Shown piece after piece: positions 14,452 to 28,526 of a stretch of DNA of 64,000 bases (the stretch's first letter is position 1; every line of letters begins with the position of its first letter). The notes beneath the pieces are model-generated. The model searched no databases and had not been told where the DNA came from. It saw only the letters and a program-made list of their open reading frames with translations. The DNA lies in the NCBI RefSeq assembly GCF_055900595.2, contig NZ_CM148325.1; one strand, 5' to 3'. Position numbers and translations under genes: made by a program.

Positions 14452-15366
14452 TCAAAATAGCCCGTTGCGTAATGCGTGTTCCAGGCTAATCCCGGGAAAC
14501 CAATTAATATCTTCAGAAATACGGTTATTACTTGCTGACCAGTCGGCGTGGGTTAATTCACGGATTTTCGAGCGGGTCAGCATAGGTTCTTTACCTGCCA
14601 GGCGACTCAACGCGGTACTGATATCCGCAAGGCAGGTGAGTACCGACAGAGGAATACCAACCATTCGAACGGAACCGCAACGGGCGTCGGCGGCAAGTTG
14701 CTGTACGCGTTGCCAGTCATAGCCGCCGGCGACGCCATCGCATAATTCATAGGTTTGCGTCTGTACAGTTTCGGCGCTTAACCACTGCCCCACGGCTTGC
14801 GCGAAATCGGTGACGTGCAGGAAAGAGAGCTGTGTATCTGGCGCACCAAGTCGTGGCAGCAGGCCGCGCAGCATCCAGTCAAACAGCGGTTTTAACTCTT
14901 TATCGCCGGGACCATACACGGCTGTCGGGCGAAAAATGCCCAGCGTAATTTCGTCAGCCATTGCGGTCAGTCGTTGTTCGGCGACGTGTTTGGAATTTGC
15001 GTACCAGGAGAGTTCGGGATGACGCGCCGCCAGCGAAGAGATAAACAGAAAACGTTGGCAAAAGCCGCTCTCTTTTGCCGCTTGCATCAGGCGCAGGCTG
15101 CCGTCAACGTTACAGCGGGTAAAAATCTCTTCTTTGTGTCCGCGCACTTGTCCGGCGCAATGGACCACCGCGCTGGCTCCGGCAACCAGTTCGCTAAGCG
15201 AATGTGTATCTTCCAGCGAACCGCGCACCCAGATGAGATTATCATTGACGTGAGCGCGGGCAGTACGCGTCAATGCGCGAACGTGAAAGCCGCGGGCGAG
15301 CAGGTTATCGATAATATATTTACCGATAAACCCGGTAGCGCCCGTCACCGCGACAGTTTGATTCAT
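14452..15366 (-). CDS. NAD(P)-dependent epimerase/dehydratase-family (extended SDR) reductase
   Basis: 304 aa with N-terminal Rossmann motif VAVTGATGFIGKYI; 4-nt overlap with the upstream AMP-ligase gene. Confidence 0.8.
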   Translation of the reverse strand: MNQTVAVTGATGFIGKYIIDNLLARGFHVRALTRTARAHVNDNLIWVRGSLEDTHSLSELVAGASAVVHCAGQVRGHKEEIFTRCNVDGSLRLMQAAKESGFCQRFLFISSLAARHPELSWYANSKHVAEQRLTAMADEITLGIFRPTAVYGPGDKELKPLFDWMLRGLLPRLGAPDTQLSFLHVTDFAQAVGQWLSAETVQTQTYELCDGVAGGYDWQRVQQLAADARCGSVRMVGIPLSVLTCLADISTALSRLAGKEPMLTRSKIRELTHADWSASNNRISEDINWFPGISLEHALRNGLF

Positions 15367-17111
15367 GCCAGGGATTCCTGCACATGAAGGCTTGCAGCAT
15401 AAGCCTTCTGATAACGTTTTTTCGCTTCCGCACGGGCAGGCTTGCCGGAGGACGTTCGGGGAATACTGTGGGGCGGCAACAGATCGATAGCCGCGGTTAC
15501 GCCAAATTCGCTTTGGATCCGTGCTGCCAGTGCGTGGATAAGCTGCCCACGACGTTCTTCGTCGCTGATCCTACACTGGATCTGCAGAATGATTTTTTCC
15601 TGGGCGGTAACAAAAGCAATCGCATCGCCAGAATGAATTTCCGGTTCCTGTTCCGCAATATATTCAATATCCTGCGGCCAGATATTACGGCCACGAATAA
15701 TAATCAGATCTTTAATGCGTCCGGTGACATACAGATAACCGTCCAGCAGATAACCGAGGTCGCCGGTATCTAACCAGCCCGTCGCGGCAATCTCGTCTTG
15801 CGAAACCTGGTCGCCAAAGTAACCGCTCATCAGGCTGGGGCCGGAGATGCAAATATGGCCTACCACACGTTCCGCGACCGGCATACCTGCTTCATTGCGG
15901 ATTTCAATGCCATGTTCCGGCAACGCTTTACCGCAGTTGACGAAAGTCGATACGGCGCGTGTTTCAGCACCCGGCGCGACGGCTTTGCCCTGATATTCAA
16001 GGATGTCGCGATCCACTTCGTTAACCACAACCCCGGAGGCTTCATCAGAGAAGCTGACAGCCAGCGCATTTTCTGCCAGTCCGTAGCACGGCATGAACGT
16101 TTTATCGTCAAAGTTAACCTGACGGAAACATTCAGCGAATTGATGGAGTTGTTCTGCGGAGATGGGTTCTGCACCAATACCAGCGACGCGCCAGCAGGAA
16201 AGATCCAGTTCAGCGAGATCTTTTTCATTCACGCGGCGCTGGCACAATTCATAGCCAAACGGCGGCGCAACGGAAACGGTGCCGCGATTTTTACTGATCA
16301 ATTTAAGCCATTGCAGAGGACGCATGGCAAAATCCTGAGTGCGCAAATAATCTACTGAAAGCTGCGTGGCGACGGGGGTCAGGAGAAAGCCGACCAGTCC
16401 CATATCATGGTAGAAAGGCAGCCAGGAGACGCAGCGGTCGCCAGGGCGTAATTTAATGCCATCGTGGCTTATAGCACGTAGATTAGCCATCACTTCGCGA
16501 TGGGTGATAATGACGCCACGGGGAAAACGGGTGCTGCCGGAGGTGTACTGGAGGTAGGCGATATCGTTCGGAACTGGATGCTGGAGTGCAACATCGGCTT
16601 CCGGTAATGCCTTAAACCAGGCGTGGCTTAAAACATGTAATTCGGGGTTGTTATGCGTAGCGGCATTGACCAGTGGCAACCACTCATCACCAGTGATAAT
16701 GGCTGCGGGCTGGCAACTTGCCAGTAAACCCTGCAGTTTGGCGCTCCAGGAATCCCGCTGACCGATGCCCATTGGAATCGCCAACGGGACGGCGACTAAG
16801 CCGGCATACTGGCAGGAAAAAAAAGCCTCTACGAACCCGCTACTGGTTTCGGCAATCAGCGCCACGCGATCGCCTTTTTTCAGGTTCAGCGATAACAACC
16901 GCTTCGCACCAGCTTCGGCACGCGCTTTTAACGTCTGATATTCCAGTTGATCTTCAAGTTGGCAACGTCTGTCATAAAAATTCATTCCGGCGCTACTCAG
17001 AGCGGCGTAGTCCAAAGCATCAACCAGCGTTGGAAAATCGGCATAGCGCATAGGTAGGGAATGCGTAAAGATTTTATTAGACATATACACCACGAAAAAA
17101 TTGGATATCAA
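15363..17111 (-). CDS. AMP-dependent synthetase/ligase (fatty-acyl-AMP ligase / acyl-ACP synthetase-like)
   Basis: 582 aa with the adenylate-forming signature YTSGSTRFPRGV (consensus YTSGSTGxPKGV) and downstream GYG/ETG-type core motifs; exact start (17111 vs 17084) uncertain. Confidence 0.85.
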   Translation of the reverse strand: MISNFFVVYMSNKIFTHSLPMRYADFPTLVDALDYAALSSAGMNFYDRRCQLEDQLEYQTLKARAEAGAKRLLSLNLKKGDRVALIAETSSGFVEAFFSCQYAGLVAVPLAIPMGIGQRDSWSAKLQGLLASCQPAAIITGDEWLPLVNAATHNNPELHVLSHAWFKALPEADVALQHPVPNDIAYLQYTSGSTRFPRGVIITHREVMANLRAISHDGIKLRPGDRCVSWLPFYHDMGLVGFLLTPVATQLSVDYLRTQDFAMRPLQWLKLISKNRGTVSVAPPFGYELCQRRVNEKDLAELDLSCWRVAGIGAEPISAEQLHQFAECFRQVNFDDKTFMPCYGLAENALAVSFSDEASGVVVNEVDRDILEYQGKAVAPGAETRAVSTFVNCGKALPEHGIEIRNEAGMPVAERVVGHICISGPSLMSGYFGDQVSQDEIAATGWLDTGDLGYLLDGYLYVTGRIKDLIIIRGRNIWPQDIEYIAEQEPEIHSGDAIAFVTAQEKIILQIQCRISDEERRGQLIHALAARIQSEFGVTAAIDLLPPHSIPRTSSGKPARAEAKKRYQKAYAASLHVQESLA

Positions 17112-17454
17112 AAATAAAATGACAATAATGCGGTGGATTATATAGGCATAAAAGATAAATGAGATAGTATTTTCATCAGTGTGAAAATGAACATTGATTT
17201 AAATAATGAGTTTGAGTTTTTTGTTTTTATTGTGAATGATATTTAATTTATGAATGTATTAAGAAGAAGCCTTGTCCGGTCGCCTTAAATCGACAAAAGG
17301 CATTGTGGCGCTTCTGTGTAGTCTCTGACCTTATCGTAATCATTAATAAATGCTATTTATTCGTCGTTTGTATTCATTGGGTTGATTATTAAGGTGCCGT
17401 TCGTTGCTGTTGCAACCTGTTTGTCACCGTTAATTATTTGTTACCCACAGAACT

Positions 17455-18597
17455 ATGGAATGCGATCTGCTGATGATTAAAATTGAAAAAGTAATTAATA
17501 AAAATGACCTTAAGGCATTTATCGCTTTTCCGTCATCACTTTATCCCGACGATCCAAACTGGATACCCCCTTTATTCATTGAACGCAACGAGCATTTGTC
17601 TGCGAAAAATCCGGGGACGGACCATATCATCTGGCAGGCGTGGGTGGCAAAAAAAGCCGGGCAGATAGTTGGGCGAATTACCGCGCAAATCGATACCTTG
17701 CACCGTGAGCGTTACGGTGAAGATACCGGTCATTTCGGCATGATTGACGCCATTGATGATCCGCAGGTTTTTGCCGCGTTGTTTGGCGCAGCGGAAGCGT
17801 GGTTGAAGTCACAAGGTGCAAGTAAGATCAGCGGTCCTTTCAGCCTGAATATCAATCAGGAAAGCGGATTACTGATTGAAGGTTTCGATACACCACCCTG
17901 TGCGATGATGCCGCACGGTAAACCGTGGTATGCCGCGCATATTGAACAATTGGGTTATCACAAAGGCATTGATTTACTAGCGTGGTGGATGCAGCGAACC
18001 GATCTCACTTTCTCTCCGGCGCTAAAAAAACTGATGGATCAGGTGCGTAAGAAGGTGACCATTCGCTGCATCAATCGCCAGCGGTTTGCCGAAGAGATGC
18101 AGATCCTGCGTGAGATTTTCAACTCTGGCTGGCAGCACAACTGGGGATTTGTGCCGTTTACCGAACATGAATTCGCGACTATGGGCGATCAACTTAAATA
18201 TCTGGTGCCGGACGATATGATCTACATCGCTGAGATTGATTCTGCACCCTGCGCGTTTATTGTTGGCTTGCCAAACATCAACGAGGCGATTGCCGATCTG
18301 AACGGATCGCTCTTTCCCTTCGGCTGGGCAAAATTGCTGTGGCGTTTAAAAGTCAGCGGTGTGCGAACTGCGCGAGTACCGCTGATGGGCGTGCGGGACG
18401 AGTATCAGTTTAGCCGCATCGGCCCGGTGATTGCGCTGTTATTGATTGAAGCCTTACGCGATCCGTTTGCCCGCCGGAAGATCGATGCGCTGGAAATGTC
18501 ATGGATCCTCGAAACCAATACAGGCATGAATAACATGCTGGAACGCATTGGGGCAGAGCCGTACAAGCGTTACCGATTGTATGAAAAGCAGATTTGA
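17455..18597 (+). CDS. yghO: YghO-family protein, intact; possible GNAT-like N-acyltransferase
   Basis: 380-aa intact ORF where K-12 (as I recall) carries only a yghO pseudogene next to glcC; acyltransferase assignment is my inference from fold-like sequence features, not a motif I can pin down. Start could also be Met at 17473. Confidence 0.65.
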   Translation: MECDLLMIKIEKVINKNDLKAFIAFPSSLYPDDPNWIPPLFIERNEHLSAKNPGTDHIIWQAWVAKKAGQIVGRITAQIDTLHRERYGEDTGHFGMIDAIDDPQVFAALFGAAEAWLKSQGASKISGPFSLNINQESGLLIEGFDTPPCAMMPHGKPWYAAHIEQLGYHKGIDLLAWWMQRTDLTFSPALKKLMDQVRKKVTIRCINRQRFAEEMQILREIFNSGWQHNWGFVPFTEHEFATMGDQLKYLVPDDMIYIAEIDSAPCAFIVGLPNINEAIADLNGSLFPFGWAKLLWRLKVSGVRTARVPLMGVRDEYQFSRIGPVIALLLIEALRDPFARRKIDALEMSWILETNTGMNNMLERIGAEPYKRYRLYEKQI

Positions 18598-19368: not shown

Positions 19369-19618
19369 TCCCGGACCTCGTGCACAGGTAGGACCAATTT
19401 TTCTGTTCTTAACTCGCAAAACACGCACATCACGTAAGTGATTATGTTACATCAATTTAACATTAAGTTAACCAAGGCAAGGTCACAGAGCTGGAAAAAA
19501 AATGGTCTGACCGGTAGCTAAAGAGATAGACGAAAACGAAAAGCCCGCTTAATAACTGTTCACAGAAGCAGCGCGCAAAAATCAGCTGCCACACAACACA
19601 ACAAAGCGAAGCCTACTC
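19369..19618. promoter_or_regulatory. Divergent glcC / glcDEFGBA promoter-operator region
   Basis: 250-bp intergenic region between divergently oriented glcC and glcD; promoter elements not individually mapped here. Confidence 0.5.
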
Positions 19619-28080: not shown

Positions 28081-28526
28081 TCATTTACATTACTCTGTCT
28101 TATTAATGGAAAATTATTTCCCGCTTTATTATCCATGTGGCAATAATGTTTCGCGTTCAGATAACATGCTAAATAATTAAGAGCGTGAGAACATCTATTA
28201 TTTATCACGCAAAACAAGTCAGTATTAATTATGTTCGCTTGATGAGCAAACACCGTTCTATCTGTTGCTTTTGCAATCTTAATCGTCAAGACTACCAACA
28301 AATTTATATAGTTACGTTGTGAAAGGTTGTTAATTTTTTGTTTATTGAAATTTCGTAAAAATAACCAGCCAGACATCGAATAGGGGTTATTCTTATAAAT
28401 TTCACCTGTTTTTCTATCAATGATGCCGTTTTCTTAAGAATGGAGGAAGTTATTAAAGAAGATAAAGCATAAAACTATTTCCCCGGTTACGAATCTTTTA
28501 ACTTTGTTTTGTCACTTGCGTTATTA

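Follow-up and report, generated by a model that had tools for sequence, protein, structure and literature searches.

Conservation in the AT-rich spacer between aasR and yghO of the Escherichia coli ceramide cluster lies beside aasR, and a palindrome before yghO is probably not a control site

Introduction

A described relative of the locus analysed here is the ceramide cluster of Caulobacter crescentus (CC_1162–CC_1165 and CC_1154; Olea-Ozuna 2021; Padilla-Gomez 2022), which groups together the five functions spt, acpR, epi, aasR and aca that are also found at the E. coli locus. The E. coli proteins were tested biochemically alongside the Caulobacter ones (PMC9386255), and the five-gene sphingolipid cluster of E. 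coli B was described by Padilla-Gomez et al. (2022; PMC9386255). It consists of spt (ECD_02854), acpR (ECD_02853), epi (ECD_02852, a putative keto-sphinganine reductase), aasR (ECD_02851, a specialised acyl-ACP synthetase) and yghO (ECD_02850, designated 'aca', a putative sphinganine or ceramide N-acyltransferase) (PMC9386255). The gene order in C. crescentus differs from that in E. coli, as does the divergent aasR/yghO layout, and no regulatory information transfers from one to the other. The textbook view is that E. coli is without sphingolipids; a biochemically competent ceramide cluster is present in most sequenced E. coli strains, including BL21 and excluding K-12. The cluster is already described and is of interest in itself; its control spacer has been little studied and is, as such, routine and unremarkable.

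Two kinds of known control region can be set beside this spacer. The divergent glcC/glcD region lies 2 kb away, at positions 19369–19618 of the window (the whole 64 kb stretch of DNA that was analysed), and, like it, is short, AT-rich and flanked by operons that point away from each other in this part of the chromosome. Both directions of glcC/glcD are repressed by ArcA (PMC3798270), and its ArcA box (19.3 bits) has the same architecture as a candidate box between aasR and yghO, the latter being weaker and not conserved in sister species. Sites at glcC/glcD have been mapped by experiment and its own regulator, GlcC, lies next to it, whereas aasR/yghO has no adjacent regulator and its sites are predicted. 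The other comparison is with E. coli promoter regions silenced by H-NS (e.g. bgl, proU and acquired islands), which, like the spacer, exceed the genome mean in AT content by a clear margin over several hundred base pairs; weak consensus promoters and genes with little detectable activity in laboratory culture are further points in common. Unlike these regions, the aasR/yghO spacer has flanks that are not AT-rich, and it carries neither phased A-tracts nor a high-affinity H-NS motif.

Materials and methods

YghO was scanned for in one genome per species, which gave 45 loci. For the Escherichia alignment the window was set beside E. whittamii, SCPM-O-B-8794 (a separate species representative in the collection) and two cryptic-clade genomes, giving five lineages. 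Third codon positions of aasR and yghO, at which 36% of the columns are variable among the five lineages, served as the neutral reference.

Of the 128 published ChIP-supported ArcA boxes (Table S3 of Park et al., 2013), 115 were used to rebuild the ArcA weight matrix. ArcA sites were defined as TGTTA-like direct repeats spaced 11 bp centre to centre (Park et al., 2013; Park & Kiley, 2014), and the genome-scan cut-off was 15 bits (Park et al., 2013). Consensus sequences of 20 E. coli regulators were also scanned, including CRP, FNR, Fur, LexA, PhoB, PhoP, CpxR, IHF, Lrp, FadR, RcsAB, OmpR, NarL, Fis and FabR. Sigma-70 candidates were scored with an approximate, frequency-based weight matrix. 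H-NS was scanned for with TCGATAAATT, which we take to be its nucleation consensus. Phasing of AA/TT dinucleotides was measured as Fourier power at periods of 10–11.25 bp and compared with shuffles.

Results and discussion

The locus and its gene starts

E. coli KY 1497 matches the 1.2 kb around the spacer at 100% identity, and the source DNA of the 64 kb window is a non-K-12 E. coli. The spacer is carried by ∼76% of complete E. coli genomes (4135 of 5426) at 95–99% identity. In K-12 derivatives an IS5 element is found at this spot and the stretch from the 3′ part of yghQ through the first codons of yghO is missing; the K-12 loss is an IS5-associated deletion. The RefSeq annotation places yghT, yghS, lptF/G-like genes, spt and the genes for an acyl carrier protein, for an NAD-dependent epimerase/dehydratase-family protein and for a fatty acyl-AMP ligase in this order on one strand; yghO is on the opposite strand, and glcC and glcDEFGBA come after it. 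The annotation shows no regulator gene within the cluster. The gene called a ligase in an earlier note on this DNA is aasR, which is divergent from yghO and is the first gene of the aasR-epi-acpR-spt operon. Its product scores 874.7 bits against NCBIfam NF006624 (cut-off 600) and Spt is also above its own NCBIfam cut-off; no Pfam or NCBIfam model matched YghO. The genes and the spacer between them are as follows.

15363–17084, minus strand: aasR (fatty acyl-AMP ligase/specialised acyl-ACP synthetase; ECD_02851 in BL21), assigned from NCBIfam NF006624, PMC9386255 and homologue starts.

17455–18597, plus strand: yghO (ECD_02850), from the RefSeq annotation and PMC9386255; the start common to other genera is ATG 17473.

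17085–17472, no strand: spacer of 388 bp (GC 0.33) between the divergent genes of the sphingolipid cluster, delimited by the gene starts conserved in homologues and by composition.

The note had described a 343 bp spacer between the ligase gene on the minus strand and yghO on the plus strand; the divergent layout holds and the limits do not. Its left limit of 17112 came from the longest open reading frame (TTG 17111), which is merely the first possible start. About 40 aasR homologues keep the N-terminus 'MS(N/E)xxxTHSLPMRYADF', which corresponds to ATG 17084, and this is taken as the start. NCBI PGAP places the aasR start at the equivalent of 17084 in some E. coli genomes and of 17051 in others; it uses 17051 for KY 1497, where the corresponding residue is not conserved in homologues. 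For yghO, the start common to genera is 'MI(K/R/S)(I/V)EKV', i.e. ATG 17473, and many homologues have in-frame stops two to six codons 5′ of this ATG. The upstream ATG 17455 is mostly restricted to Escherichia, with a similar upstream ATG in one metagenome genome (L040), and ATG 17473 is probably the start; if ATG 17455 is used, the spacer ends at 17454. Both gene starts are thereby corrected by homologue comparison and, since homologues shift both of them, the spacer length is 370–388 bp rather than 343 bp.

The description of the spacer as a divergent control region agrees with the comparative data. spt-acpR-epi-aasR lies divergently upstream of yghO in nearly all of the 45 loci (∼40 Enterobacterales and Pseudomonas genomes); this layout was found in Shimwellia, Citrobacter, Pseudocitrobacter, Pluralibacter, Serratia, Erwinia, Tatumella, Rosenbergiella, Pantoea, Hafnia, Sodalis, Cedecea, Klebsiella indica and Pseudomonas. 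The spacer is 288–1113 bp long across genera with a GC content of 0.26–0.43, always AT-richer than the genes (0.43–0.57). AT-richness is therefore a general property of the spacer, being found in every genus examined, and not a peculiarity of E. coli. Conserved small open reading frames were absent: those in the E. coli spacer encode 21–32 amino acids, and the longer spacers of other genera likewise hold none that is conserved. In a blastn comparison with the spacers of ∼35 other genomes, the E. coli spacer had no match outside Escherichia. A search of positions 16800–17800 against Rfam 15 (E ≤ 10) returned four chance matches to eukaryotic snoRNAs and miRNAs (E = 2–8), far below gathering scores.

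Composition, curvature and H-NS motifs

The strong AT-richness with A/T tracts that had been noted is real. Against a GC content of 0.477 over the entire window and ∼0.50 in the flanking genes (yghO), 17112–17454 has 0.324, and 17085–17472 includes nine A or T runs that are 4 nt or longer. This AT-richness is no exception in the 64 kb window: 15% of its 343 nt stretches equal it, nearly all of them in the capsule island. The capsule region (47.6–58.3 kb, GC 0.24–0.27) is a typical target of xenogeneic silencing, beside which the aasR/yghO spacer is mild. The proposed DNA curvature found no support: AA/TT dinucleotides show no 10–11 bp phasing beyond that of shuffles (p = 0.41). The H-NS motif is not enriched in the spacer; its best match is 8/10 at 17245–17254, which is equalled by 68% of shuffles. 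H-NS favours long AT-rich tracts, and from the AT content alone its binding to the spacer is plausible. The literature on yghO, the ECD_0285x tags, H-NS and sphingolipids, and H-NS ChIP in BL21 yielded no published H-NS or other regulation at the aasR/yghO locus; data sets from K-12 do not extend to this DNA.

A near-invariant block beside aasR

The most conserved stretch in the 2.2 kb alignment of the five Escherichia lineages comprises the 60–96 nt next to aasR.

17085–17180, minus strand: near-invariant non-coding block in the five-lineage alignment, predicted to be the aasR 5′ untranslated region and core promoter.

17137–17142, minus strand: perfect −10 hexamer TATAAT predicted for aasR, invariant across Escherichia.

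17088–17091, minus strand: Shine–Dalgarno-like GGTG, 3 nt before the aasR ATG (GGTGTATATG); 'catGGTGTA(T/G)TATG' is kept in Escherichia, Citrobacter amalonaticus, Pseudocitrobacter and Hafnia.

Only four of the 96 columns of the block are variable (4%), compared with 36% at third codon positions (binomial P ∼ 1e-13), and within 17085–17144 the count is one in 60, below any coding segment in the 2.2 kb. Among eight diverse E. coli the block has a single variable column. A recombination tract was considered as the cause and rejected; the adjacent coding windows diverge normally. On the aasR strand the block reads ...CTCATTTATCTTTTATGCCTATATAATCCACCGCATTATTGTCATTTTATTTTTGATATCCAATTTTTTCGTGGTGTATATG.

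From these features we infer that the block is the promoter of the aasR operon. The −10 hexamer TATAAT matches at 6/6 positions and is preceded, across a 17 nt spacer, by a weak −35 (ATCTCA, 3/6); the total is 6.0 bits and the promoter is absent from a stricter promoter scan, no sigma-70 candidate above 7 bits being found in either direction of the spacer. Transcription is predicted to start near 17130, giving a leader of ∼46 nt, in which no significant RNA fold was found (z = −1.48). In C. amalonaticus, Pseudocitrobacter and Hafnia, whose AasR has an N-terminus of the E. coli type, hexamers resembling a −10 (TAAAAT, TATAAC and TATACT) lie at the corresponding position, 52–65 nt 5′ of the ATG. 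A perfect −10 combined with a poor −35 would suggest a weak aasR promoter that is activator-dependent or otherwise tightly controlled, and we infer that the extreme conservation of the block reflects the binding of a further protein. Two candidates in this part were rejected: a PhoB-like repeat in the aasR −35 region (10/14 match) is at the wrong distance from the −10, and a CRP half-site TGTGA at 17179–17183 is TGCGA in several lineages.

The yghO side and the palindrome

The spacer next to yghO behaves differently: 23 of the 60 columns in 17385–17444 are variable, which is about the neutral rate. In other genera AAGG lies six to seven nucleotides 5′ of the yghO start codon; in Escherichia neither candidate ATG is preceded by a Shine–Dalgarno sequence. 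Of 23 genus-level groups, seven have the motif TTATTG(T/C) at −38 to −46 of yghO (expected number 0.48), the motif having been picked after seeing the data so that its P value is optimistic; Escherichia is without it and at the corresponding distance carries TTATTTGT, which is longer by one T. Escherichia would thus have lost both the AAGG ribosome-binding site and TTATTG(T/C), and because of these losses yghO is probably weakly expressed. The sequence points to yghO expression signals in Escherichia that are weak and remodelled.

Within this part lies the inverted repeat GTTGC-N4-GCAAC that the earlier note had placed ∼40 bp 5′ of yghO and offered as a possible operator for a dimeric regulator. 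The repeat is exactly at the position given, ending 38 nt before ATG 17455.

17403–17416, no strand: palindrome GTTGC-TGTT-GCAAC, which contains the 8 bp palindrome GTTGCAAC and a −35-like hexamer TTGCAA at 17410–17415.

Perfect 5 bp inverted repeats with loops of 0–10 nt number 11 in the region, against 6.1 ± 3.2 in dinucleotide shuffles, of which 9.6% reach 11. Those with G+C-rich arms number two against a shuffle mean of 0.28 (4% of shuffles reach two), and from this mean about one shuffle in four would hold at least one; an inverted repeat with two 5 bp arms is probably near the chance level. Since it overlaps the tandem run GTTC-GTTGC-T-GTTGC, the palindrome is a direct repeat as much as an inverted one. 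Within Escherichia, only E. coli proper and E. whittamii have it intact. Its right arm is missing as a 7 nt indel (GCAACCT) from Escherichia sp. E1V33 and SCPM-O-B-8794 and is mutated to GCAGC in MOD1-EC7003, i.e. it is lost or mutated in three of the four sister lineages, and in all three of these genomes the cluster genes are intact despite the change. Seven of the 14 palindrome columns are variable (50%), compared with 36% at third codon positions. The palindrome and the surrounding 18 nt (GTTCGTTGCTGTTGCAAC) are invariant in eight diverse E. coli, with SNPs flanking them; 18 invariant columns are unremarkable at E. coli-level divergence.

Because the spacers of other genera have no blastn homology to that of E. 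coli, footprinting of the palindrome across genera was limited to pattern searches. These found it in no other genus's spacer except that of one Pseudomonas; TGTTGCAACC also occurs 54 nt 5′ of yghO in Pseudomonas capeferrum. Among the 20 transcription-factor consensus sequences none matched the palindrome above chance. With the right arm gone or mutated in most sister lineages, half of the columns varying and no regulator gene in the cluster, the operator proposal is not supported; judged by its conservation the palindrome is probably not a control site, and an operator specific to E. coli might still lie here. The palindrome would instead be a lineage-specific by-product of the 7 nt indel inside the GTTGC tandem run.

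A candidate ArcA box

Only ArcA stood out among the 20 regulators scanned.

17427–17444, plus strand: candidate ArcA-box-like direct repeat CCGTTAATTATTTGTTAC, with CGTTA at 17428–17432 and TGTTA at 17439–17443, 11 bp centre to centre.

This repeat lies 11–28 nt before ATG 17455 and scores 15.2 bits, the fifth best value in the 64 kb window and the 37th percentile of the training boxes; the known glcC/glcD box was recovered as the top match. Its score is reached by 7–8% of composition-matched dinucleotide shuffles (p = 0.07–0.08). Variants among E. coli score 14.2–18.3 bits, and those of sister Escherichia lineages 6.5–7.7 bits owing to a G-to-A change. The spacers of other genera are not enriched in ArcA boxes. 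The published ArcA ChIP experiments used K-12, from which this DNA is absent. As an operator candidate the repeat appears better than the palindrome, although unproven. ArcA is a reasonable lead because the fad genes and the neighbouring glc operon are among its repression targets, and as one testable regulator candidate it narrows the search for when the pathway is on.

Expression in laboratory culture

The low GC content and the palindrome had been offered as a reason why the cluster may be silent under laboratory conditions, and published data bear on this in both directions. The lipid profile of BL21(DE3) carrying plasmid-borne SPT alone or AcpR and AasR alone equals that of the empty vector (PMC9386255), and the chromosomal partners therefore contribute little. 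On the other side, lipids downstream of 3-oxo-sphinganine do appear in BL21, and the products of chromosomal ECD_02852 and ECD_02850 (yghO) were suggested to act on the plasmid-derived 3-oxo-sphinganine (PMC9386255), which argues against complete silence. Support for silence from these lipid data is indirect.

Reading of the spacer

The spacer would be the bidirectional promoter region of the E. coli dihydroceramide cluster, driving aasR-epi-acpR-spt leftwards and yghO rightwards. We consider it likely that it is an ordinary AT-rich spacer of this kind, with its constraint in the 96 bp beside aasR and with a palindrome that does not serve as a conserved operator. The composition, the gene starts, the conservation profile and the motif scores come directly from the sequence comparisons; where the promoters lie, how weakly they are expressed and whether proteins bind are predictions within this reading. 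The almost invariant block, and not the palindrome, is probably a control site.

Among the alternatives, silencing by H-NS is given somewhat less than an even chance: the 68% A+T spacer would nucleate H-NS, both promoters would be occluded and the cluster would be off in laboratory culture. A GC content of 0.32–0.33 over ∼390 bp against ∼0.50 in the flanking genes, the preference of H-NS for such tracts and the poor consensus match of both promoters suit this explanation, as does the failure of chromosomal aasR, acpR and spt to complement their plasmid-borne partners in BL21 (PMC9386255). Set against these are the absence of helical AA/TT phasing (p = 0.41), a best TCGATAAATT match (8/10) of a quality seen in 68% of shuffles, the lack of published support in the literature searched and the apparent activity of chromosomal epi and yghO in BL21; moreover, the normal G+C content of the flanking genes would limit any filament to ∼400 bp. 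AT-richness alone also leaves unexplained why 96 bp are near-invariant while the equally AT-rich remainder drifts. Repression of yghO by ArcA-P through CGTTA-N6-TGTTA at 17427–17444, by which ceramide N-acylation would be off under anaerobic or microaerobic conditions as are the glc operon and the fad genes, is judged unlikely. The repeat has the correct 11 bp spacing, passes the 15-bit cut-off (Park et al., 2013) as the fifth best site in 64 kb in a scan topped by the glcC/glcD box, and holds at 14.2–18.3 bits across E. coli variants, and ArcA is a known repressor of fatty-acid oxidation (fad) genes and of glcC/glcD. It is, however, one match out of 20 motifs tried, 7–8% of composition-matched shuffles do as well, the G-to-A change takes sister Escherichia lineages down to 6.5–7.7 bits and other genera's spacers show no enrichment; ArcA being inactive in aerobic culture, aerobic silence would also be left unexplained.

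The two explanations that centre on the palindrome fare worse. That GTTGC-N4-GCAAC binds a dimeric repressor ∼40 bp 5′ of yghO is very improbable, even though the 5+5 dyad at 17403–17416 is perfect and invariant in eight diverse E. coli, inverted repeats with G+C-rich arms are mildly enriched (two against 0.28), bound protein would overlap a possible −35 (TTGCAA) located 16 nt 5′ of AATTAT at 17432–17437, and TGTTGCAACC recurs 54 nt 5′ of yghO in P. capeferrum. Against it, three of four sister Escherichia lineages keep the genes while losing or mutating the arm, and the variability of the dyad's columns (50%) equals or exceeds that of neutral sites; the dyad is also missing from other genera's spacers apart from the one Pseudomonas, overlaps the tandem GTTGC repeat, has no regulator gene in the cluster to go with it and resembles none of the 20 consensus sequences beyond chance. 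Were the yghO transcript to start further upstream, the palindrome could instead act in RNA as a stem-loop that, followed by CUGUUUGU, terminates or stalls transcription of the leader. A terminator scan does flag 17403–17416 with its tail, and the hairpin on its own has a folding energy of −6.2 kcal/mol (z = −2.35). One terminator-like site was seen against 0.9 expected, though; the stem has just 5 bp and the tail five U in eight, the 96 nt context folds no better than shuffles (z = +0.55, i.e. no significant fold of the yghO leader), the palindrome is not conserved and Rfam gave no match, so that the chance of an attenuator here is close to negligible.

Returning to the reading of the spacer as an ordinary bidirectional promoter region, the analysis locates the constraint in the control region, and the 96 bp beside aasR are the part worth following up. 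We suggest tentatively, while considering it somewhat unlikely, that this block is the docking site of a signal-responsive regulator, or a structured leader, that switches on aasR-epi-acpR-spt. If this were true, the roughly three-quarters of E. coli that carry the cluster would confine ceramide production to particular circumstances, for example the host gut, envelope stress or a shortage of nutrients, and the block would be a handle for finding the inducing signal.

The middle of the spacer and minor sites

The middle of the spacer would be unconstrained, and the third of the spacer on the yghO side, palindrome included, would be drifting near the neutral rate.

17265–17324, no strand: hypervariable, slightly G+C-richer spacer centre, with 41 of 60 columns variable among Escherichia lineages.

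Over 17261–17340, 57% of the columns are variable. A FadR-like TTGTC-N-GACCG was rejected as a candidate; it occurs in strain Ecol_732 and not in the window strain, and it sits in the hypervariable centre. A sigma-54-like GG-N10-GC at 17393–17407 was likewise set aside, its spacing being off by one. BL21 and another strain carry a 5 bp duplication just before the yghO ATG, and an inverted repeat GCCTT-N10-AAGGC lies at 17282–17301, within the hypervariable centre.

Start codons and upstream signals of aasR and yghO

The annotated start of aasR, which encodes a fatty acyl-AMP ligase, differs among the E. coli genomes in RefSeq, the candidates lying at window positions 17051, 17084 and 17111. 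The equivalent of 17051 is annotated in KY 1497 and BL21 and that of 17084 in DE17, L1PEag1 and OkiPb01714; conservation of the sequence across genera supports 17084.

On the opposite side of the spacer, Escherichia yghO (window 17455–17475) has in-frame ATG codons at 17455 and 17473, neither of which is preceded by a Shine–Dalgarno sequence. The yghO start in other genera is the equivalent of 17473 and has AAGG ahead of the ATG. A 5 bp duplication of ACAGA is present immediately upstream of 17455 in BL21 and CNR85I8.

The motif (G)GTTTATTG(T/C) was located 38–46 nt upstream of the yghO ATG in seven of the genome loci retrieved for comparison (L007, L009, L010, L011, L026, L036 and the metagenome genome L040); in several genera CTGGATAATATAGGC comes before it, and a T-run and CAGTAAT come after it. 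It is kept upstream of yghO across genera between whose spacers homology is otherwise undetectable, and probably serves as the core promoter of yghO or as a site for a regulator. In Escherichia the motif is degenerate.

The 10-mer TGTTGCAACC (window 17408–17417), which includes the 8 bp palindrome GTTGCAAC, also occurs outside E. coli, 54 nt upstream of yghO in Pseudomonas capeferrum (L034). Apart from this one Pseudomonas genome it was not found upstream of yghO in any other genus examined, and its presence in both species is therefore probably a coincidence.

Variable centre of the spacer

The centre of the spacer (17265–17324) is hypervariable, 41 of its 60 columns differing among Escherichia lineages, which exceeds the synonymous rate. 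It has a higher G+C content than the remaining spacer and includes GCCTT-N10-AAGGC. Spacers of other genera that reach 620–790 bp carry extra sequence, of which this segment may be a remnant.

Loss of the cluster in K-12

In the K-12 derivative ME8067 (L002, 5738–9103) an IS5 element sits between a truncated yghQ and yghO, as in K-12 lineage strains. These strains are without the entire block of lptF/G-like and sphingolipid genes, and the sphingolipid cluster is consequently absent from K-12-based regulatory data sets.

Other ArcA-box matches and AT-rich DNA in the window

When matches in the window were ranked with a weight matrix built from 115 published ArcA boxes, the known glcC/glcD box (19457–19474) came first and TTGTTAATTTTTTGTTTA (28327–28344; 18.7 bits) second. 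The latter match falls between glcA and sslE (yghJ), on the upstream side of sslE and of the gsp genes for type II secretion.

A very AT-rich region at ∼47600–58300 (G+C fraction 0.24–0.27 in 343 nt windows) adjoins an IS3 pseudogene and contains capsule-biosynthesis genes for glycosyltransferases, CDP-glycerol glycerophosphotransferase and ABC transporter components. The region resembles the serotype-specific part of a capsule locus of the kps type, and as a target of H-NS it is far more typical than the aasR/yghO spacer.
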